A model generated the notes under the pieces. That model saw nothing but the letters and a program-made list of their open reading frames with translations. It was not told the DNA's origin and ran no database searches. The position numbers were made by a program, and so were the translations under genes. Of a stretch of 64,000 nt of DNA, positions 567 through 33,900 are shown one piece after another. The stretch is taken from positions 31,419 to 95,418 of the IMG/VR virus record IMGVR_UViG_3300009151_000043, one strand, 5' to 3'. Within the stretch, counting starts at the first letter, position 1; each line of letters begins with the position of its first letter. The stretch comes from a virus.

Positions 567-1847
567 ATGTTATTAAACAGCTTCAACAGTAAAATCAATC
601 TACCTAGTGTAGTATCCAAACTCGGAGTTAACACTTCTGAATATGACTTTGTGAGGCTGCCTATTTTTGGTTGGTATGCCCGCTCAAAATCAAATGACTT
701 TGTAGGCAACATATTCGACTTCTTCCATATAAACGACTGGCGCAGGCTGTATGGCACAATTTGCAGAGATTTTAGTGACTGCTTTGATTTTAAGCTACCA
801 TACAGTGAGCATGCTGAAAAGAACCTTTTTAAGGATCAAACTAAAATCATGCAATGGCAGTCTGTATGGCTACTCAGTCAGCAAGAAGCTGAGAGTGCAC
901 GGGCCAGGTATCAAGACAAGATTGTGTACTTTACAGATATACTGAATGACGCCGGTATGCCTGAGCTTGTCACTAACGGTTTTGGCTACCTTACCGACAA
1001 GGTACTCAAAAGCTTTCCTAAGCTAGAGTTGGACAATAAATACAAATATAAGAAGACTGTGGTTATTCCCTCGTTCTGCTCACCCAAGCATATCTGCTCA
1101 CTAGAGGTGGCCAGGCTGACAGATATCACTCAAAGAGAGACTGTTTTTCTTAATAGCGAGTATGGCTGGTATGGAAAACAGGGCGTGGAAGTTGTCAGAG
1201 ATATCAGTGAGCTAAAAATAAAGGTAGGCAATACTTGGAACTATAAAAACGATTATTGGAACAAGACCACTATCAAGTTGTCTGAGGCGCTAGGCGCTAG
1301 TCAGCTTATCAAGATATGGAGCGAGTCCCGTAACACGACGTTTTCTGAAAAGATAATGGAAAGTATCATCGGTAAGCAGGGGAATGATGATCTTAAGAAC
1401 CATGTACCTATGCTCAAGTATGCGCAGGTGCAGGAGCTTGAGAAAGTCAGTGGGCAGCCCCTGTTAGAGTACTGGATGAAGAGCCGAGAAGAACAATTCA
1501 ATGTACACGGCAAAACCTACGTCAAAAAAGATAAATCTTATTTCCTGGTTAAAAAGAATGAAGAAGAGCAACTAACCAACTTCACACTAGATATAAAGGA
1601 GATACGTAAAAAAAATGAAGACGAGTTTATTTGGTGCGGAATGATCTACTTTGAAGAGCACGCTGTTCCTTTTGAGATGGAGGACAGATACTTCATGTCC
1701 TGTCACCTGTTTACAAAAGGCATACGTAAAATGTTCCTCAATCTAGGGCTAGGTATCCCGTTCATTAACGAGAAGTATGTAAGGCAGCTTATCACCATGA
1801 TTCAGCTCACCTGCAGCAACATCAAGGTTGTTTCTGACAATAGCTAA
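567..1847 (+). CDS. Hypothetical protein, 426 aa; possibly replication/primase-associated
   Basis: The only long plus-strand ORF not overlapping a minus-strand gene. The C-terminus (YFLVKK..QLTNFTLDIKEI) loosely recalls primase/helicase accessory domains, but no catalytic motif was recognised. Confidence 0.6.
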   Translation: MLLNSFNSKINLPSVVSKLGVNTSEYDFVRLPIFGWYARSKSNDFVGNIFDFFHINDWRRLYGTICRDFSDCFDFKLPYSEHAEKNLFKDQTKIMQWQSVWLLSQQEAESARARYQDKIVYFTDILNDAGMPELVTNGFGYLTDKVLKSFPKLELDNKYKYKKTVVIPSFCSPKHICSLEVARLTDITQRETVFLNSEYGWYGKQGVEVVRDISELKIKVGNTWNYKNDYWNKTTIKLSEALGASQLIKIWSESRNTTFSEKIMESIIGKQGNDDLKNHVPMLKYAQVQELEKVSGQPLLEYWMKSREEQFNVHGKTYVKKDKSYFLVKKNEEEQLTNFTLDIKEIRKKNEDEFIWCGMIYFEEHAVPFEMEDRYFMSCHLFTKGIRKMFLNLGLGIPFINEKYVRQLITMIQLTCSNIKVVSDNS

Positions 1848-1857
1848 AAGAAAGATC

Positions 1858-2170
1858 GCTGGGTAAACCTTCTCGCCGTGCATGCAAACACAGCGAGAAG
1901 GCAACCTTTACCCCAACCCGAAAGGGTCCAGGGTATTTATAGACGCCTGGCCGTCTTAGGGCGCAAATTTCTTTGCACCTCCACCAGTCCTTGCGGACAA
2001 TTTATACCTACGGACAAAGCCACCGCAATTCCAGTTTTGGTTTCTTGTTTACTGTAGGTATAAAAGTAAAAAGTGTTCTCCTTCGTGGTTAGGCGGGCTG
2101 CTGGAGAATACAGCCTATGACACAGGATGCCAACAAACCTGTGCACCAAGACACTCACGACTTGTCTTTT
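1858..2170 (-). ncRNA. Unidentified structured non-coding RNA (~310 nt) downstream of tmRNA
   Basis: Stems at 1868-1880/1889-1901, 1861-1867/1907-1913, 1916-1927, 1928-1932/1946-1950, 1987-1998, 2001-2011/2054-2064, 2096-2100/2111-2115 and 2121-2126/2138-2143. Plus-strand mismatches become G-U pairs on the minus strand. Confidence 0.6.
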
Positions 2171-2665: not shown

Positions 2666-2695
2666 ATTATACCATTAAAACAGAGGAATATTCAA
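2666..2695 (-). promoter_or_regulatory. sigma70-type promoter of tmRNA
   Basis: TTGAAT-N18-TATAAT with extended -10 TG, about 30 nt upstream of the mature 5' end. Confidence 0.7.
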
Positions 2696-2749: not shown

Positions 2750-3445
2750 CTAGGATGAGAAAAACACAGCGTCGTTAGTTGCTGGTGTCTTGCCTACTGT
2801 GTTCGGCTTATTGGGCCACGTCTCTTCCACAGTTGACCTGTTGGGAGAAGTACCAATCTGTGAAACCGACTCAGGGTTAGGTGAAAAGTTGCCATATTCT
2901 ATATTAAAGCATTGGTTCAACACTACATATTTTCTATCAAACCTACCCTTGCCTTCTCCTACGCGCTCTTGAATAAGGACGGTGATATAGTAGGTGCCGG
3001 CAAAGAAAGTGCTTGTAGCTGCTGAGGGAATCCACACCTCATAATAGCCTGCATCTCCAGACATCTTGTATATGCCAGTCTCCAGACGCCCTTCCCACAA
3101 TACTGTAGCTGCCCTGGGGCTGGTCTTTACAAAGACTTTAACTTCGTAATGTGTGGAATCTACAGGAGCACCGTCATGAAACAGAAAAACATCATAAACG
3201 ATATCTTCGCCCTGATAGAACATGTCTGGGTTCGTATTGCTTCCCTGCTCAAAGGGTATTCCTGGGATACCGTCCAAAATAATGGTGTAGGGCTCAGGAG
3301 GACTGTTCTGCTCTTTCCTGGCACGCATTTGAGACGACTGTAATGCTGCAAGATTGTCTATAGCGGCCTTATAGACACTTTGTGAATCTCCCCCAGCATC
3401 CTGGGTAAAAAACTGAGGTATTACATCGTCCTGCATATTATACAC
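2750..3445 (-). CDS. Hypothetical virion/baseplate-associated protein (BppU-N-like beta domain)
   Basis: 231-aa ORF at the end of the tail operon. FYQGEDIVYDVFLFHDGAPVD..YEVKVFVK resembles baseplate upper-protein N-domains. Confidence 0.5.
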   Translation of the reverse strand: MYNMQDDVIPQFFTQDAGGDSQSVYKAAIDNLAALQSSQMRARKEQNSPPEPYTIILDGIPGIPFEQGSNTNPDMFYQGEDIVYDVFLFHDGAPVDSTHYEVKVFVKTSPRAATVLWEGRLETGIYKMSGDAGYYEVWIPSAATSTFFAGTYYITVLIQERVGEGKGRFDRKYVVLNQCFNIEYGNFSPNPESVSQIGTSPNRSTVEETWPNKPNTVGKTPATNDAVFFSS

Positions 3446-4700: not shown

Positions 4701-5438
4701 TTAAGATATAAGTGTTGGTAGCAAAAAGCTTGTGCTTGGTGTACCCGCCACGAGGTCTACATATAGTGACGCCGCGTTACGTGAAGTTATCTTTATCACG
4801 TCGTTTGAGGCTAGATTAATATTATTATTGATAGGTCTCACCAAATTTATCTGCCGCAACCCATTAACTGGAGGACCATCACCACCAGGGGAGCTTGTTG
4901 AGATTGCATGACCATAGACAGCATTAAAGGTCAGTGCGTTTAGTTCTGTGGAAACATTATAGAATATTGCTTTGTCCTCTAGGGTTCTGCTTAATTGTAC
5001 GTCTCCGTAATTTGAGTCTAGTGTGTAGACGGCGTCCTTGGATGGAATGGAGCTCGTGGTGTTGGCTGCAAAGGGAGCATTATAGATTAACTCGCGACCT
5101 ACATAGTTATCCCACAAAATATTAACCCCCGAACCGAAAGTCACAACACCCATATATCGGCTAGCGTCATCATTATAGAGTCTGAGACTACGATACTCGT
5201 CACCAAGCTCGTAGACTTCTTTATAGAGTGTGGCTGGCAGGCTTGCACCATAGTCAAATGTGAGTGTGATGATTATATTGTCAGCGTTAACTTTCACTTT
5301 GTTCAGTACTGGAGTAAACCCGTCAAACTGTACGAACTTGGCATCGACCAGAAAGTCTTGAACGTCTAGATCAAATGCGAATGGATAGCTTGTTAGCCCG
5401 TTTTCATTTTGCCAGCTTAATGGGTTGTATAATGCCAT
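4701..5438 (-). CDS. Baseplate/tail-fibre-associated paralog (N-x4-YP family)
   Basis: N-terminus WQNENGLTSYPF; internal INLVRPINNNINL. Confidence 0.65.
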   Translation of the reverse strand: MALYNPLSWQNENGLTSYPFAFDLDVQDFLVDAKFVQFDGFTPVLNKVKVNADNIIITLTFDYGASLPATLYKEVYELGDEYRSLRLYNDDASRYMGVVTFGSGVNILWDNYVGRELIYNAPFAANTTSSIPSKDAVYTLDSNYGDVQLSRTLEDKAIFYNVSTELNALTFNAVYGHAISTSSPGGDGPPVNGLRQINLVRPINNNINLASNDVIKITSRNAASLYVDLVAGTPSTSFLLPTLIS

Positions 5439-5444
5439 AGTATA

Positions 5445-6764
5445 TTAGGTTACGCTGTAGTACATTATTACTGTCTCCGCCCCTGCCTGCCCTGCCGAGT
5501 TAACTGCCCTTATTTTTATACCGTAGACGCCGCTAGGCACATGCCTGAGGATGATTGGGCTTTTATCTGTCCCTGAGCTTAGAAACGCAGTGAACTCTTC
5601 CCCAGGAGGGCTGATAGCATACTCATAGTCAGTGATAGTGTGCGCACCATCATTCACAGGAGGAACAAAAGAAATGACTAGCTCTCCGGGTGCAGGAGCT
5701 CCGGCGTTTGTCGAAGGTAAAACTGTAGGTACTGAAGGTGCCGTGAGCCGCCAATAAGCATAATACTCACTTTTTACAAATTGCGGCCAGTAATAAAACT
5801 CAGGTTTTTCTGTGGTATTAAAGTTGCCTGATAGTCTTGGAGGTATTGCGTAAGGGTAGCTACTCAACTCCTGGGTGGTTAGAAGCTCAGGTTTGCTATA
5901 GTACAGGTCCTGTGTTCCTGTGGAAGCTACGGTAAACCCTCGAATATCTTGAGGCGGAATCAATTTATGTTTCTGCGTACACAAGCTAGCCAAGGATATC
6001 CCCTCAGTAGCTAGCGCTACCACTCCGGCTTGCCCAGGTATGCCGTAAAACACTACAGGTTTTACCCCCACTAAATATATGTTTGCATCATTTGCGTCAT
6101 GGGCGTCTTCTGCGCTAGATGACGGATATACGCCATTGATATTAGTGATGGTGGGTGTGCTGCAATTACTCAGATACGTGGACTTATCTACCAGGTTTTT
6201 AACTGCAGACGGAGTCAAAGCGTAAAGACGCGTACTACCTATTTGCGTTGTTTTTGCTACATTTGTAAGTATTCCAAAGTTTACTCGCCCTCTCAGCTCG
6301 CTACCTTTCTTGTCACGTATGCTTGTTACGGCAGGATGGGTATAGCAAAATATTGTAGACTCTTCAAACTCTGTACTTTCTTTAGGGAAGTTGAGTACCC
6401 TACTCACTGAACTCAGCGATTCTAGTGTGCCTAGTGTTAGACTGCCTGACACAAAACGTATGAAGGGTGTGAGCTGCAGTGTGCTGTATGCTGTGGCCGC
6501 CTTGGTAGCAAAAATACCAACGACCTGATCATCCTGTTGAGGGTCTGAGGATATAGTAGCTACAGCTATTCTAAGTACTGGAGCACTATAAAATATCTGC
6601 TTTATATACAGTCTGTGTTTTCCTAGCTGCGAGGTTAACGAGCAGTCTACTATCAACTCATCAGAGAGTAAGTATCCGTCGTCAGATAGTGATGCTGCCC
6701 CCTGCTTAAAGGGATACTTCCTAAACTGATTTTTATTTAATCTTTGAAGACTGAGGATACTCAT
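5445..6764 (-). CDS. Baseplate/fibre paralog with C-terminal fibronectin type III domain
   Basis: N-terminus RLNKNQFRKYPF; internal INGVYP; C-terminal FVPPVNDG..ITDYEY...IKIRAVNSAG matches the Fn3 pattern. Confidence 0.7.
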   Translation of the reverse strand: MSILSLQRLNKNQFRKYPFKQGAASLSDDGYLLSDELIVDCSLTSQLGKHRLYIKQIFYSAPVLRIAVATISSDPQQDDQVVGIFATKAATAYSTLQLTPFIRFVSGSLTLGTLESLSSVSRVLNFPKESTEFEESTIFCYTHPAVTSIRDKKGSELRGRVNFGILTNVAKTTQIGSTRLYALTPSAVKNLVDKSTYLSNCSTPTITNINGVYPSSSAEDAHDANDANIYLVGVKPVVFYGIPGQAGVVALATEGISLASLCTQKHKLIPPQDIRGFTVASTGTQDLYYSKPELLTTQELSSYPYAIPPRLSGNFNTTEKPEFYYWPQFVKSEYYAYWRLTAPSVPTVLPSTNAGAPAPGELVISFVPPVNDGAHTITDYEYAISPPGEEFTAFLSSGTDKSPIILRHVPSGVYGIKIRAVNSAGQAGAETVIMYYSVT

Positions 6765-6779
6765 TATATTATTGCGCTA

Positions 6780-9700
6780 CTACACGCTAAAATAGCCTAC
6801 TAAGTTTTGTACACCCATTACAAGCCCTTTTGAAAGGTAGAAATCTGTATAGTATTGTAGAGAGCTGCTCGCAGTTACTCCGTAAACAGTCATAGATGTG
6901 TTGGGTCCCCAAACACTATAGTAGTCGTTGAAATTCTCTGTGTCTGTCTTGTCTACAAAGCTGATAGGGGTGTACTGGTTGAGTGCGGCGCCGTCCCACG
7001 TCCAGAATTTAGGTCTGTCGCCAGGTAAATCAAGTTTGTAGAGCGAAGAGGCCCCGTACAAATAGTCATACTTATCGTATGACATGTCAGGACCAGGTAT
7101 ATTTATGCGCTTCGTGAGCGCTGGTCCCTCGTCACAGGTGGCAACCATTATAAACTCAGGTGACGCCGGATCATTCCATAACCAAATGTACTCGTTACGA
7201 CAACGTATATTGGTTGGGCGGCGCAGCAATTGGACAATACCTACTTTGTTAATATCCGAATTAACGTTGTGTATGGATAGTACGTGGTCGTCATGGTCCG
7301 GGACTGACTGTTTGGTTGGTCCCCAGGAACACCAAGGGTCAAGTGGATACTTATCACAACCACCCAGAACCATTGTGTAATTGGGGTCCATCATGTTCCC
7401 TCTTGAAGCTTGCATATAACTATAACGACCTATCTTATAAGTATAAAGAGGTACGTTATACCTCGCGTACGGACTACTCAGATTAATGCCGCTTGCAATT
7501 GATGAGTGATACGTTAACAATCCGTAAGTGGTAGGCCCTGACAAGTAACCCACGGAGTACGATGTGGCTGTAGCGAGAGCTAGTCTAAGCTCAATACTTA
7601 TGCTTGAATAATTATCGGCATTTGCTATCGGGATGGTATAGCTGTCTACTGCAGTAGCTGTGACAACATACTTTTTAGCGTTGTCTGTAGCATTTCTGTC
7701 CCATTCGGGGCTGCTGGGCGATCTAAACTCATTTCTGTAGTTTTCTATTGCTGGCCACGGTACAAACGACAGGTCAGCTTCAGCTGAAACAGAGTGTGTG
7801 CCTGCTTTATCCCAAAAGTGCAACCTATAATAATACTTGGAGTTATAAGAGTCCCAGTCGGGGCTTTCTTTGAAAAAATTCATGTTGAGCCGGGACAGCT
7901 GGAATTTAATACTTGCTCTGTCATCCCCTAGGCCTAGTGCTCGCACAAATGGCGGTGCAGGTATTGGCGGAGCAAGCAATTTGATGGCGCTAGTCGCAGT
8001 TATGGTTCTTCCAACATATGTAATCTGTCCGTTATATATCTGCCCTCCATACATCGTCCTTATCTCCTTGGATGGAAGAATGCCTGGAGTACGGTGCGCC
8101 TTATAAGATGCTGCGTATACCTCACGGTAAGAACGATTACTTAATACTGTCTCAGGTTGTAATTGCGCTTTGGTGAACACGCCTGTAGATATTTCCCCAA
8201 AAAGATATAGTGTTATATCCTCCCCAGACTCATAAACTCCAGGCAATACGTAATTGTTGAGGTTAGTTGCAACTACCGTTGTAAAACTACCTGCTGGTGC
8301 CTTAGCGTTTACTATTTTTACTTTTGTACCTGCAGGGTCATTCACAGCCAGCCATATAGCGGTATCCTCGTAATATGTAATATGTAAGTTTACAGTGATT
8401 GTCATTTTACACCCTTGCGGATGGTAAATAAACGATGGGCTGCCTGCTGATGTAACACCTGCACTTACGGCAACGATAGTGGCCTCGCAAAGCGGTATTG
8501 CGTTAGGGTTTTTGATATAAGCTGCCTGAGAATTTCCTACTGAGCTGGTCGTGTACACCTTATATATGCTCGGGAACGCATAACCTAGAGTTGAGTCTAC
8601 CTCTAGCCTGTTAGGCTGCAGATAATCGTAATCGCTTCTGTCTGCGTATTTTCTCACAAGGTAAGTCGTGGTTACCGGCGGAGACACGCTATTATCGGTT
8701 TTCGTCGCAGTGTCTATCGAAAAAGTGTAATCCGAATACACGAAGGTATAGCTGTAGCGCAATTCATAAGTATCGGTGTTTAAAAGCGAAGGCACATACG
8801 TGGAGGGTCCGGTGCCCCCAGTTATATAGTTTATTTGTATACTGCAACCGGCGTCAATCGTTAGAGCTCCCTTTGACCCAGGCAAAGAGACATACCCCTC
8901 TATCACATGGCTGTAGTCTTCGCCTTCGCCTATAGCGTAACCTGTCTTACCCACCACTTCTCCCTTTTTCCATACTCCCCATCCAGTATCTTTGGCTCCA
9001 TTGTCGAGGCCTGGAATTATGCTTATGTGTGCGGGGCTATTTGTGAAACTGTCGAACGCCGGATTATTGGTGAATGATAGGCTTGGTGCGCTGGGAGGAA
9101 GAGGTATCCTTACGTTGTTAAATGATGGTGTATGTGTGAAGTCGCCTCCGCTAGCAAGCAAGTCTATTTTATGATTAGTGTGATCAGAAGTAGGCAAATT
9201 AATCACACCAACTAGCTTAAATAACTCTGCTCCTGGAGGATTGGCTCCTACGCTGGCCGGTTTATTTACAGTAGGCAGATTACTGACGAGAGTTATCGAG
9301 CTGTCTTGAGTTAACGGTAAAAATGGTCCGTTATCTATGCTGTAGCTTCTAGATGAAATTTGCGTAATCAGCGCGGCTTCCTCGTTATATGAAAAATATT
9401 TGTAAGAGTAGGCATACACACCAAGCTTGCCAGGTGCGACAGGAATTATACGGTAGCTCTCTATTGCAAGAGAGCGTAGAGCTAAAGGACTCTTTGGTGA
9501 TGCTGCAGACTTGCCTACTGAGTTATAGGCTTGAATACTCACTCCAGCTGTTTTTGAATTATTATATAGCCCGTGGGACCCTGCGTCATCGAAGGGTAAG
9601 ACATATACTGTTTGATTTGGGTCAGTTATATTTACATCGAAACCAGGGAAGTTAATAGTGTACCCGGTAGCTCCCCGTACTTTGCTCCAGGATACAGTTA

Positions 9701-24761: not shown

Positions 24762-26366
24762 TTAAGCGATACTCAAAGCTATGTTGTCGATAGGCTGCAC
24801 CACGCCAGCTTCAAACCTATAATAATCTATGAAATAGAGCGTTGTTTTCTTGGTCACCCCTTTAGCTAGATTCTCAGGTATAGTTAACACAGCTGAGTCA
24901 GCTAGTGGGATTATTGTTCCATCGGAACAGAAAACATTACCACTCATCTTTATTGGTAGGTCTACGCGCTTGATGTCATAGTTATGACATATATCGATTA
25001 TCGACGAAGCCTGCAATTCCTCGCCAAAAGGTATGGAATTCACATAAGAGAATATGTCTTTTTTAAGCTTCTGCAAGTTAAGCGAAGTGTAAGTGTCGCT
25101 TGTTCTTTTTTTGATTAAATTGATTTCTAAAGAAACAAAACAAGGTACCACGGCTTTGACCAAATAGTCTGCGCAAGCTAATCTCTGACTGTCCAGCAGC
25201 AGCATGTCCTGCATCTCGAGAATATTCGGCTGCACAACAAGCTGCAGCACAAAGTCCATTTTATCTAGTGAGTTGTTGGTGTATTTAAACCTTAGTCTAG
25301 CTGTTTGGTATTTTGTGAAACGTGCTTCGTCGTCGTTGTTCAGCTCGTTATGCCTCTGAAATGGGTAGTATCCAGTGCCGTAATGTGTGTCTACCACCAC
25401 CAGGGTACCTGTTAAATCTGCCTCCGTGGTTAGAGGTATTATAGACTTCACGTAATAGAAGCCTGGCGCGTCATCATTGGCTATATCTAGCTCCCACAAG
25501 CCATCAGCTACTCGCTTACCTGTCTTGGTTATTGTTACTGTCTCTGGTCCTAGACTGCTACGCACATAAACATCCGCCTTCCCAAAAGTCGATATGCCTA
25601 GGGCGTTTTGCTTAGCCCTTGTCAGCTCTGGGTCATTCGCACCACAAATGGATAGCGTTTTAAACCCTGAGAATGTACTGCTGAACTGTTTAAATATTCC
25701 TGCCTCTGACTCAAAGCGTGAGTTACCTAGGTTGTTTTTTATTTTAGCTACTAGCTGCTTATCATTTTCTTTAGCTGCTCCAGATGAAAAATTACCGTAC
25801 GCTTCAATAGATACCAGGTTAGTTATGAAAAACTTTGGTGGAAGTGTGAATCTAGTGCCTGAAGCAACCTGATATTCTGGGCCCTCTGCGGAAGCTTCCA
25901 CATCGAGTAAAAAATAATAGCCTGCAGTATCTGCGTACATCTGCTTCTCAGTAGTTACTCTGGAGGGGTTCATACTGAATCTGATGTTTGCAGGGATCGT
26001 ATATGTTAGGTTCAGTAAAGGCTGCACAAACTGATAGCCTTTCCTGAACAAATAGTCATCCGCAGCAGACACAGTTACTTTCAGCTTTCCTCGTACTTTT
26101 ACTCCTGAGCTTCTTTCAGTGTTGTAGTTTGAAGCAATCAGATCCATTAGCGGCGAATATGTGGTCTCTGCGGAGTCAGTGATTTGCTTTATTGTACTGC
26201 CCTGGTTTAAGGTCTGTATTGTATTGTACTGCTCGTTCTGGATAGCTGCAGCCAACTTGATCAGAAGCTCGCTGATAACTGACCCTGGACCAGTCTCAAT
26301 ATCTGTGTAGTTCTGGGCTATAAAAGCGGTTAATCTCTCTGCGGTATTGTAGGTTGTTTCAGCCAT
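24762..26366 (-). CDS. Baseplate J-like wedge protein
   Basis: GPGSVISELLIK, VEASAEGPEYQV, FSSGAAKENDKQL and GKADVYV match gpJ/gp6-family motifs. Confidence 0.8.
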   Translation of the reverse strand: MAETTYNTAERLTAFIAQNYTDIETGPGSVISELLIKLAAAIQNEQYNTIQTLNQGSTIKQITDSAETTYSPLMDLIASNYNTERSSGVKVRGKLKVTVSAADDYLFRKGYQFVQPLLNLTYTIPANIRFSMNPSRVTTEKQMYADTAGYYFLLDVEASAEGPEYQVASGTRFTLPPKFFITNLVSIEAYGNFSSGAAKENDKQLVAKIKNNLGNSRFESEAGIFKQFSSTFSGFKTLSICGANDPELTRAKQNALGISTFGKADVYVRSSLGPETVTITKTGKRVADGLWELDIANDDAPGFYYVKSIIPLTTEADLTGTLVVVDTHYGTGYYPFQRHNELNNDDEARFTKYQTARLRFKYTNNSLDKMDFVLQLVVQPNILEMQDMLLLDSQRLACADYLVKAVVPCFVSLEINLIKKRTSDTYTSLNLQKLKKDIFSYVNSIPFGEELQASSIIDICHNYDIKRVDLPIKMSGNVFCSDGTIIPLADSAVLTIPENLAKGVTKKTTLYFIDYYRFEAGVVQPIDNIALSIA

Positions 26367-30918: not shown

Positions 30919-33900
30919 TTAATTTAATGCGGTAGCTAAGTCGCTTAAAGCTCGTGTTAATGCTCCTGTGTTTAATGCCTGAATCAGACCCTCAAAAAGT
31001 TTGGATATATCTCCACCACCGCCACTAGTCAGAAGACCTGTGCTCCCTCCGGAGGATACGGACTGCCCTTTGGCTGCAGCCTTTTCTTTGTCGCTGTTGA
31101 TATAGTCTTTCGTTCTGCTCATTTCCTTGTCCAGCCTGCTGAACTTCTCTGATTTCGCTTTTGAGTCCATGCCTTCAAAACGACTGAAATAGTTATTTTC
31201 TTTGTTTTTAGACGGGTCCGCGCGGTCTTTCATCATCTGCTTAACGCCGCCTTTATCTTTATAGAAGTCTAGAGCTTCTTTTATAGTTTCTCCTCCTGAC
31301 TGCTTGGCATGAGTCTGCAGCCGCTTGTCTAACCCAACCATTCTTTTTTCTTCCAGCGCTGAACGCTTGGCTTCTATGTTCGAGGTTGCTTGCGCTTGTA
31401 CCGTGCTTGCCGCCTGCGAGCGTACGGTACCTTCCTTGGCCAGAGCCCAGGATTTTTCATCTGCCATGGCTCCGGTGCTTTCGTTTAGTTCAAGCCCTTC
31501 CATCTCTTCTTTTTCGTCAGCTTTCAAATCTTTAGTATCTCTCAAGGTCTCTAGTCTTTGTCTAGCCTCTAACGCTGTTCCTCCTTTGATCTTGGCTGCT
31601 TTGCGCGCTTTCTCATACTGTTCATCGGTAAGTCCCTTTTTAGATAAAGTGGCTAGGGTCTTTGTTGCTGCAGCCTTGTCTCCCTCTGAGGCTGAGTCGC
31701 TCTTGAGTGTCTCTTCTGCGCTCGTTCGACGATCAGCTATGATCTTATTCATCTCCTTACCCATACCTTTTTCCATGAGCTTTTTGTCACCATGTTCTGT
31801 GCCGCTAAGCTCAGCTATCTTGCCCCCTGCCTCTCTCGCGTCCTGCATAGCTTTCTTGCTCTCGGTAGACATTTTGTCGTCTGTCGAGAAGACCTTTGCG
31901 AGATTCTCGGCAGCCCCTTCTACCCCTTTACCAGACGCTATCGCGCTAGTCATCTGTGTAATTAAAGGAGAATTCGCGGAGTCAAATTCTTTTGCTGTTA
32001 CGGCCTCGTCTTTAGCTTGTTCCTGTACGGTGGTTTTAAACTCATTTTTTTCCGCCTCGGTTTTGCCGGACATGAGCAAATGGTTTTGAATCATCCTCCT
32101 CGACTGTCTATACTCTTGCTGCTGCCGTGGTGTGCGGAGCTTTGTCATAATTTCTCTTTTTTCAAAGTCAGCATAGCTTTCTCCCTTTGCTTCAGACTCT
32201 TTATACTTTTTAGTCAATGCCTCGTCACTAAGTCCCTTAACCCTTCTGTTATGTGCGAAGAAACTTTTAACTACTGAGTTCTCTGCCGCCTCACCAGTTG
32301 TTGAGCTGGCTATATCCTCATCTTCAAACCCCTCTTGCTGCAGCATCTTGTTGTTTCCTATGTTCAAGACTTCCATAGCTGTCTTGCCTCCCATCAATTT
32401 ACCTATCTCCGAGGCTCCGCCAGTACTAAATTCGTGGGCAGTCATTCCTTGAGCAAACCTTTTTTTAATACCTTCATAACCCTCTGTTCCTTTAGATGCA
32501 GCTAATATTGCTGACTGGAAGCCGCCCATACCTGTCTGCGCGAAATTTAGAGATTCTTTGACGTGCTCTGCTGCCAGCCCTTGCGCGCCTCCTGCAGCTC
32601 TATAATCCGCATCACTCATATTTGCACTCATTGTAGACGCCTTGCCTATAGCGTTCAGAGATAGCTCAGCTATACTGCCTGAGTTCATTCTTTGTAGCTG
32701 CGGGTTGCTTTTGGCTAGATCTTTTCCTGACTCCATCAACCCTGTGATTGTCTCATTGCTTACCCCAGCCACCCTAGCGGTGGCATTCATCCTACGCAGT
32801 CTGCTTTCCATTTTACTAACCTTGATAGTGTCTCCTGGATTCCCCAGGTTTTCGTCTTCCTTAGTAAGATCTACTGCACCGGCTCCAGCCACATTACTCA
32901 TCTGCTTTACTAGCTCGTCTGTAGAACGATTTCCAAAAACTGCTCTGGCTGCGCTTAAAGAACCCCCAGCCTTCTCTGTAAACTTACCAAGCTCATCTCC
33001 GTAATCTTTACCACGTTGATCTCCCAGCATTCTTAGCTTACTTGCTGTAGAAAAGCCTTTCTCGATTTCTTCGAGCTTAAAGCCTCGTGTGTTAGCAAAA
33101 TTGACACCATTATATTTAAACCCTGCTTTCTCTGCTGCCTGACTTTCTTGACCTTTCTTGTCCAGGTAATCGTCTTGGGCTTGGTGTGCGACGTACGTCT
33201 TGGCCTTTTCGATATTCAGATTTCCTTTTTTATCGATCATTCCTCTTTCTTTAAGCACTTTGTTGGCTTCCCCCATATCTACTTTTTCTGGAGAGGATAC
33301 TTCTTTACCTAAAAAGTCTGTGCTATGTGCATGTATAAGCTTCTTTATGGCTGACTCGTTCTTATTTTTCTGCACGTCTTTTTCATCATCTCCCTCTCTT
33401 GAGGCTGCAAGATCGTCAAGGCTCTCGTTGATATTTACCGCCTGCTTCTTTCTTTCATAGCTTCTGGAGGCCAATTGTCTACGACTAGACTGTCCACCTT
33501 CTTCCTCACCCTCGTTGGGGAGTTGTCCTTCTTTGACCATACCTGGCAGATTCTTGACCTTCTCATAGTCTATGGTCCCTGCGTTGTTTTTATACTTATC
33601 TATTTGCTGCCCGGACATACCTAGGGTTTTAAGCTTCTCCTCCAATGCGTCACTATTTTTCTGTAGGTTGGGATTGTCTGCTTTGTCTCTGTTCCCTAGA
33701 TAACGCTCTACCTTCGCCATATCTACTTCCCCCCGCGTCTTCACACCACCAATATCATTGGCTGTTGCGCCATACTTTTTCATCTCCTGCTCAAAAGATT
33801 TATTGGCTTCTTTCTTTTCTTCAGGAGAAGCGGAAAGTAATTTTTGGGCTTTTTCAGTTATTGCCTCTGTGCGTGAGCCTGCCCGCTCAGCTACAGCCTT

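Follow-up and report, generated by a model that had tools for sequence, protein, structure and literature searches.

The 349-nt gap behind the transfer-messenger RNA (tmRNA) gene of a giant phage holds several distinct folded RNA modules in a row, not one RNA of ~310 nt, and one of these modules, here called unit 1, is on comparative grounds a member of a new, widespread, single-copy family of phage RNAs in which two hairpin loops are stapled by one 3′ strand. The window, i.e. the whole stretch of DNA that was analysed, comprises 64,000 nt (positions 31,419 to 95,418) of the IMG/VR virus record IMGVR_UViG_3300009151_000043, a 95-kb record with an estimated completeness of 49%; complete relatives measure 190–204 kb. 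Within the window, the gap (1848–2196) separates an open reading frame (ORF) of 426 amino acids without a known family (567–1847, plus strand) from the convergent tmRNA unit on the minus strand (tmRNA at 2197–2633; Rfam RF00023, 118.2 bits, full length). All features of the gap described below are on the minus strand and, read from 5′ to 3′, follow one another as an A-U hairpin, unit 1, a long hairpin, a GNRA hairpin, unit 2 and a terminator-like hairpin. The initial annotation, made from the letters of the window, had described the flagged stretch as a noncoding, structured minus-strand RNA, which it is, and as a possibly new class of phage noncoding RNA. The novelty holds for unit 1, an uncatalogued family, while the idea of a single ~310-nt class closed by a multiloop does not, given that the parts occur separately in other phages.

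Unit 1 (2074–2171) is a double-pseudoknot motif of ~95 nt. It opens with the H1 stem (2147–2152/2164–2169), which carries the invariant 11-nt loop AAGUCGUGAGU (2153–2163), continues with the variable hairpin H2 (2120–2144) and the H3 stem (2096–2101/2110–2115, loop at 2102–2109), and ends with the invariant strand CUAACCACGA (2083–2092) and the tail GGAGAA (2076–2081), which pairs with the H3 loop. The pairings CACAGG/CCUGUG and GGCUG/CAGCC, first spotted in the single sequence, thus correspond to H2 and H3. Across the family, the plan consists of an H1 of 5–6 bp closed by a U-G pair and capped by the 11-nt loop AAGUCGUGAGU, an H2 of any length, an H3 of 5–6 bp with a loop of ~8 nt, a spacer of 0–4 nt, CUAACCACGA, one nucleotide and a tail of 5–6 nt that pairs with the H3 loop; the window has every helix as well as the loop and the strand. 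A covariance model built from unit 1, termed R1, gives the window copy 75.7 bits, the top score of all members.

The evidence that carries this structure comes from an alignment of 26 copies, in which 84.9% of the cells are paired. Its covariation score of 0.475 compares with a mean of 0.178 for shuffled alignments, none of 500 of which reached 0.475, and sliding the partners by 1–3 columns leaves at most 0.151. H1, H3 and the tail pseudoknot all covary strongly: pairs changed on both sides number five of six in H1, six of six in H3 and five of five in the tail pseudoknot, whose helix appears in at least 17 different versions by eye. The pseudoknot proposed between UUCUCC (2103–2108) and GGAGAA is therefore real. 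Likewise, the suspicion that G-U pairs favour the minus strand is borne out by the closing pairs, which are U-G in 22 of the 26 copies for H1 and in 17 for H3. In addition, UCGUG of the H1 loop is complementary to CACGA of the CUAACCACGA strand, providing a candidate second pseudoknot that would stack on the tail pseudoknot.

Outside of the covarying helices, 21 letters of unit 1 are invariant across unrelated phages. Copies were sought in viral, metagenome and genome collections with the anchor words AAGUCGUGAG and CUAACCACGA, common to the window and two other loci (L004 and L007); because the scans demanded both words, the invariance is partly imposed. A relaxed purine/pyrimidine (R/Y) scan, which covers only four positions, returned canonical words only, plus one A-to-G variant that preserves a U-G pair. 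R1 separates true members (45–76 bits) from chance pattern matches (at most 29 bits), and a further R1 match in the window at 25415–25525 (14.2 bits) was taken as chance. The 21 invariant letters imply a sequence-specific partner or a catalytic core. The first seven letters of the H1 loop, AAGUCGU (2153–2159), are identical to positions 1492–1498 of 16S ribosomal RNA, which are universally conserved (the complement of primer 1492R), an identity that at seven letters is within chance. Neither of the conserved 10- and 11-letter words was found in an RNA context in the papers searched.

Unit 1 is both scattered and rare. Each of six carrier phage records searched as a whole contains a single copy, three complete relatives of the window phage have none, and 185,579 prokaryote genomes contain one true copy, in a Rubritalea metagenome-assembled genome. 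It stands alone in L004 and in about 20 unrelated contigs, and its carriers are themselves unrelated, including jumbo phages with tmRNA as well as small phages. Among 119 diverse phage tmRNA/tRNA loci collected by a scan for the tmRNA T-arm, none has the conserved words of unit 1 downstream. In terms of novelty, unit 1 extends a growing and poorly understood kind of RNA by a new family and does not yet amount to a new kind of system. Its distribution would suit a stand-alone functional RNA, trans-acting or a decoy, that binds a conserved host or phage factor and for which the tmRNA slot is merely a convenient place of expression: all six records have one copy, the 21 letters are kept despite unrelated neighbouring genes, and prokaryote genomes essentially lack it. 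We nevertheless consider this rather unlikely, as no candidate for a partner has emerged, the two invariant segments are mutually complementary and may simply pair with one another, and no promoter of its own was found for unit 1 in the window.

In every copy, unit 1 lies between genes and is co-directional with its neighbours. Upstream, a stop codon is 5–70 nt away in most copies, or else a tRNA or tmRNA precedes at 25–126 nt. Downstream, it is followed by an ORF at 17–200 nt, a tRNA at ~7 nt (L160, L164), a canonical terminator (L153) or unit 2. The four copies that lie 17–30 nt upstream of an ORF (L137, L139, L142, L176) could be taken for riboswitches or other cis-regulators of the downstream gene. 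The one constant class of downstream gene that would mark a riboswitch was not found: the partners range from different kinds of ORF to a tRNA, a terminator or another RNA module, and in the window no gene follows at all, which makes such a role very improbable. In the small phages L143 and L145, unit 1 is located between two genes that resemble terminase subunits (by N-terminal sequence only), a position that might recall a DNA-level site such as pac/cos or att, just as the intron-split tRNA-Met found in the same slot of two relatives (L006 and L016) might point to a decayed tRNA-Met/group I intron cassette. The notion that there is no functional RNA here is, of all readings, the hardest to credit: neither blastn nor Rfam relates the stretch to the L016 cassette, the G-U pairs tie the structure to one strand, its orientation is in every case that of transcription, and covariation across unrelated phages would be unexpected of debris.

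Two other neighbourhoods of unit 1 deserve mention. In L137, L139, L140 and L142 it comes after genes resembling, by their N-termini only, a metallophosphoesterase, an ATP-dependent ligase and a P-loop polynucleotide kinase, with a tRNA-Arg(UCU) between these genes and unit 1 in L137 and L140; to judge by these resemblances, the neighbourhood could be an RNA-repair cassette. In L141, three type II hammerheads (1232–1300, 2164–2230 and 3141–3209, plus strand) occupy consecutive gaps of one operon; their CUGAUGA/GAAAC cores are intact and they score 33–36 bits against a cut-off of 37. Unit 1, followed by a canonical terminator, closes this operon.

As for the gap as a whole, every stem listed by the initial annotation is found in the sequence. 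The 13-bp stem and its GGGTAAA/TTTACCC extension form one hairpin (1861–1913), the 11-bp helix (2001–2011/2054–2064) is perfect, and GUCC-GCAA-GGAC is present at 1987–1998. The one pairing that finds no support is the long-range helix 2146–2152/1953–1959, as it takes the 3′ strand of H1, which covaries with 2164–2169. Folding energies bear out the expected excess of structure over shuffled sequences, with z = −5.0 on the minus strand (−133 kcal/mol) and z = −4.8 on the plus strand (−116.8 kcal/mol), the minus strand being 16 kcal/mol lower. Broken down on the minus strand, the end hairpin 1861–1913 has z = −6.2, the region of unit 2 −2.9, the middle hairpin −2.56 and unit 1 −0.74, meaning that the energy signal of the gap stems mainly from the terminator-like hairpin. 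Unit 1 is thus the best conserved part and yet has the weakest nested-fold signal, so that energy alone would have led to the wrong part of the gap.

Scans with Rfam (release 15) found no family that reaches its cut-off in the gap, in agreement with the earlier failure to match it to RNase P, SRP, 6S or group I cores. The only match was a weak one to Pistol (RF02679), with 19.9 bits and E = 0.25 at 1911–1956, below the Rfam cut-off of 34.5 bits.

These observations bear on the reading, in line with the initial annotation, that the whole 310–350 nt act as one large ornate noncoding RNA, similar to GOLLD or ROOL. Such a unit would account for the whole-gap z of about −5, for the presence of all parts in one probable transcript and for the same order of units 1 and 2 in three loci (the window, L007 and L180), and a relative does carry GOLLD. 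Nevertheless, the two units are apart in most loci, and where they do occur together, the sequence between them differs, with 87 nt here and an unrelated stretch of ~35 nt in L007 and L180. Moreover, the middle hairpin lacks a homologue, the helix proposed to close the multiloop conflicts with the covarying H1, and complete relatives do without unit 1. Together, this renders one large RNA quite unlikely.

The modular nature of the gap becomes apparent when the same slot is compared between relatives. Fifteen of these were retrieved through the 426-amino-acid protein (69–77% identity), whereas L180 came from pattern scans. The distance between the tmRNA and the gene for this protein ranges from 72 to 856 nt. 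In L002, L008/9 and L011/12, the tmRNA is followed by nothing more than a 72–83-nt trailer with a hairpin; L013 and L014 have unit 2 in this place; L010 has unit 2 and, 9 nt on, a tRNA-Met; and L007 and L180 have a tRNA-Met, unit 1 and unit 2. Still other cargo is found in L006 and L016, namely a tRNA-Met(CAU) whose anticodon loop is interrupted by a group I intron (68.7 bits), with an HNH ORF adjacent. No tmRNA is present in the loci of L003, L004, L005 and L015; in L004, unit 1 alone follows a small ORF. In the DNA contig of another relative, 513 nt of the present sequence are exchanged for 450 other letters.

Several details of these loci are worth recording in their own right. The split tRNA-Met(CAU) of L016 (5880–6150) and L006, on the minus strand, starts 6 nt past the tmRNA and has its intron after CUCAUAA; the HNH-motif ORF of L016 is on the opposite strand (5371–5925). 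Between unit 2 and the convergent gene of L007, ~470 nt without a credible ORF (5270–5738, minus strand) may hold further RNA elements. L015 contains, on its minus strand (8517–9001), a GOLLD RNA at 150 bits, exactly the Rfam cut-off, with a Pistol ribozyme (40.9 bits) 11 nt downstream, an arrangement which suggests 3′-end trimming of the GOLLD RNA by the ribozyme. Finally, L002 has an abiF RNA motif at 2868–2905 (minus strand; 42.4 bits, cut-off 37).

The second pseudoknotted module, unit 2 (1926–1986), begins with UGGUGGA (1980–1986), followed by hairpin A with a GAAA loop (1960–1979), hairpin B with CCAGG in its loop (1941–1956), an A-rich linker (1933–1940) and CCUGG (1928–1932), after which comes AC. 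Pairing of CCUGG with the loop of hairpin B results in an H-type pseudoknot. Only six copies in three designs are known: a loose pattern returned nothing from viral contigs other than chance matches and a duplicate of L010, and the last pattern scan added L180 only. Common to all six are UGGUGGA, which in L014 reads UGGCG, a hairpin A that covaries and in four of them has a GAAA loop, and the CCAGG/CCUGG helix followed by A. The knotted form of the window, L013, L010 and L014 is 100% paired in these four copies, and L014 shows a compensatory change to CCGAG/CUCGG; in L007 and L180, the helix encloses a small hairpin and is nested instead of knotted. What is kept in unit 2 seems to be a stacked helix of ~10 bp that ends in GG-A. 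In L013, L010 and L014, unit 2 occurs without unit 1.

The sequence after unit 2 also recurs elsewhere. A word resembling C(C)UUUUC...GGUG follows unit 2, the tmRNA in module-free loci and the tRNA-Met of L010, which suggests either precise insertion of the cassettes at the 3′ end of the tmRNA or a trailer that serves as a common processing signal. In the relatives L002, L008, L011 and L013, the tmRNA end is followed after 4–8 nt by a word of the GGUG(G) type, complementary to CCACC of the acceptor 3′ strand, and the window has such trailer words at 2180–2196 and 1911–1925. UGGUGGA of unit 2 is in turn fully complementary to UCCACCA. By virtue of this complementarity, these words may form an anti-acceptor pairing in the precursor, a scheme that L014 does not fit. 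A T-box-like pairing between UGGUGGA and a tmRNA end UCCACCA was dropped, since L014 carries UGGCG with no matching change in its tmRNA end.

The remaining parts of the gap are less widely shared. In the tmRNA trailer, the A-U-rich hairpin P0 (2170–2194), which contains a CCUUUC... word, is linked to unit 1 by an A-run; a similar hairpin with an A-run precedes unit 1 in L004, L007, L137, L139 and L142. The long hairpin between units 1 and 2 (2001–2064), with its perfect 11-bp stem and structured interior, is lineage-specific, as it has no homologue in any locus collected for this analysis. The GNRA hairpin sits just before unit 2, a place taken by other hairpins in the relatives compared (L013, L010, L007 and L180). 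The large hairpin at 1861–1913 (−34.7 kcal/mol), preceded by the trailer word CCUUUCGGGUUGG, stands at the convergent end of the 426-amino-acid gene and the tmRNA unit, and every relative has a different GC-rich hairpin in this position. Its U-rich run starts 6 nt past the stem, and it is a candidate terminator.

How is the gap expressed? A sigma-70-like promoter, TTGAAT-18-TG-TATAAT (2666–2695, minus strand), is positioned ~33 nt upstream of the tmRNA 5′ end; with 10 of 12 matches and an extended −10 element, it is the top promoter-like site within 1700–2900 and, by sequence, the likely start of a transcript that includes the gap. Because the sole strong promoter-like site precedes the tmRNA and the gap finishes in a large hairpin, the gap is probably the 3′ part of the tmRNA transcription unit, in line with the co-transcription anticipated by the initial annotation; release through 3′ processing of the tmRNA, proposed there as well, would be plausible. 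Contigs from two lake metatranscriptome runs carry exact pieces of the tmRNA (2414–2605). The encoded tmRNA ends in UCCACCC, i.e. ACCC in place of ACCA, meaning that the final A of CCA is not encoded; an encoded CCA is also lacking at the tmRNA end of L002 and L013. ARAGORN did not call the tmRNA at 2197–2633 despite its 118 bits in Rfam, blastn of 1800–2700 against GenBank phages gave no match, and searches of Pfam and PHROGs with the neighbouring proteins yielded nothing useful.

With regard to function, we favour, at a probability of roughly 45%, the reading that the modules are RNA-end-defining or end-protecting elements in the variable cargo of the tmRNA transcript. The transcript would extend from the promoter upstream of the tmRNA as far as the hairpin that closes the gap. 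As in the tmRNA and in the tRNA-Met found in relatives, the 3′ end of every module would be marked by a helix, then an A, then a U-rich trailer. Here the tRNA-type 3′ processing of the host, in which RNase E or RNase Z precedes exonucleases, would come into play, or else transcription would partly terminate at the U-tract. The compact pseudoknot would set the position of the resulting RNA end and shield it, allowing the modules to serve in cis as RNA punctuation and stability elements. Helix, A and U-rich trailer together are the kind of site that is cut by RNase E and RNase Z in bacterial tRNA 3′ maturation. The first letter past the tail pseudoknot of unit 1 (+1) is A in 14 of 24 copies, and from +2 to +8 the most frequent letter is U (18 of 24 at +3).

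A number of observations weigh against this proposal. Unit 1 is sporadic and present once per genome, as one would sooner expect of a dedicated RNA gene or regulatory site than of a general punctuation device, which should recur in many gaps. Not all copies have the U-rich trailer (L153, L144 and L146 lack it), and the 21 invariant nucleotides exceed the needs of a nuclease barrier. The pairing of the H1 loop with CACGA is without covariation, both sides being invariant in the 26 copies. Furthermore, the metatranscriptome contigs reach the tmRNA only and none extends over 1848–2196, although as contigs they are uninformative on transcription of the gap, and a simple terminator scan did not call the hairpin 1861–1913.

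The same trailer could be read as part of a device that acts on transcription, with the tail pseudoknot and U-tract constituting a terminator or attenuator, or with the units working as put-like antiterminators that modify RNA polymerase. In most copies, the helix that forms last indeed abuts an A and a U-rich run, and unit 1 sits between co-directional genes or just before a canonical terminator. We regard a role of this type as distinctly improbable: several copies lack the U-tract, efficient termination would silence the tRNA that begins ~7 nt on in L160 and L164, and there is no promoter-proximal placement, unlike in the case of put RNAs.

The surplus of invariant letters and the single-copy distribution both pull towards a dedicated function, and unit 1 could be the first sighting of a new small catalytic or factor-recruiting class of RNA, although this is unlikely. 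In its most exciting version, this class would be a new self-cleaving ribozyme, its core made of the AAGUCGUGAGU loop stapled to CUAACCACGA, that cuts or marks transcripts of unrelated phages once per genome. As a ribozyme, unit 1 would cleave the polycistronic transcript within or next to its own sequence. Two pseudoknots and 21 invariant nucleotides amid covarying helices would be in keeping with this, as would its small size and its scatter over unrelated phages in intergenic positions near tRNAs. Known ribozymes also turn up in its vicinity, with the hammerheads of L141 in three earlier gaps of the same operon and a true Pistol beside the GOLLD RNA of the relative L015, and we further count in favour that minimal HDV-like ‘theta’ ribozymes adjoining phage tRNAs have already been published (PMC10879173). 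That unit 1 itself cleaves is still improbable, considering that it matches no Rfam ribozyme family, offers no cleavage site that could be pointed to, occurs once per genome and is accompanied by known ribozymes in just one of ~20 contigs.

Whatever its activity, unit 1 provides a clean case among the uncatalogued small knotted RNAs in phage tRNA/tmRNA clusters, and at ~95 nt it is small enough for direct tests of self-cleavage, nuclease resistance and factor binding. The slot behind the tmRNA illustrates how phages exchange RNA cargo at one site, where pseudoknot modules or a tRNA, with or without an intron that splits it, may be found. Should the modules indeed define RNA ends, this would explain how phage RNAs mature from long transcripts; if unit 1 were catalytic, it would add one more ribozyme class.

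Among known RNA classes, Pistol comes closest to unit 2. In both, the loop of a short hairpin pairs with a strand downstream of an AUAAAUA-like linker; the P1-like hairpin B with its pseudoknotted loop, the A-rich linker UAUAAAUAC and CCUGG of unit 2 correspond to this arrangement, and CG.C..GGCG..UAUAAAUAC agrees with the Pistol consensus. In contrast to Pistol, unit 2 has no room for the 5′ strand of P2, no P3 and no G-U cleavage site: a single nucleotide separates the linker from the pseudoknot strand, and the Rfam alignment deletes the positions of P2, P3 and cleavage. A further difference is the nested CCAGG/CCUGG helix of L007 and L180. Because P2, P3 and the cleavage dinucleotide are missing, unit 2 is Pistol-like but not a Pistol ribozyme.

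Unit 1 resembles type II hammerheads and theta ribozymes in being small, scattered, intergenic, co-directional and near tRNAs, with covarying helices around invariant letters, but it has neither their cores nor their topologies (as judged by Rfam and inspection) and is single-copy per genome. The hammerhead core CUGANGA with GAAA is absent from both units, without any Rfam match. Inspection for a hepatitis delta virus (HDV)-like or theta fold revealed neither the order P1-P2-P3-P1′-P4-P2′ nor a P3/L3 in either unit, and Rfam gave no match at E up to 10; in both units, the pseudoknot strand pairs inside a hairpin loop, unlike in the HDV-like fold. For the units, an HDV-like fold, a permuted Pistol, a hammerhead and the twister word CCGCCUAAC were dropped, as were an RNase P P4-like pairing and a tag-like mini-ORF ending in UAA. 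Group I introns (RF00028) had no match at E up to 10 within 1750–2260, ARAGORN and the Rfam clan CL00001 found no tRNA or tmRNA in 1848–2196, and models of GOLLD and large ornate RNAs did not match in the gap.

Further parallels lie with RNA ends and with other phage RNAs. The tRNA-like structures of plant viruses, compared here along with tRNA minihelices, have pseudoknotted mimics of the acceptor arm. In the units, too, the 3′ strand and a hairpin loop create a stacked helix, of ~10 bp in unit 2 and ~12 bp in unit 1, next to which stands an unpaired A, and the trailer past that A is the same as after the tmRNA and tRNA-Met of the phage; the difference is that most copies of the units have no encoded CCA and no tRNA-like body. 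Although no similarity in sequence or model connects the units with the T4 species 1 and 2 RNAs, GOLLD or ROOL, and although they are far smaller than GOLLD and ROOL and modular in build, they share with all of these the hallmark of structured phage RNAs of unknown function that reside near tRNA or tmRNA genes.

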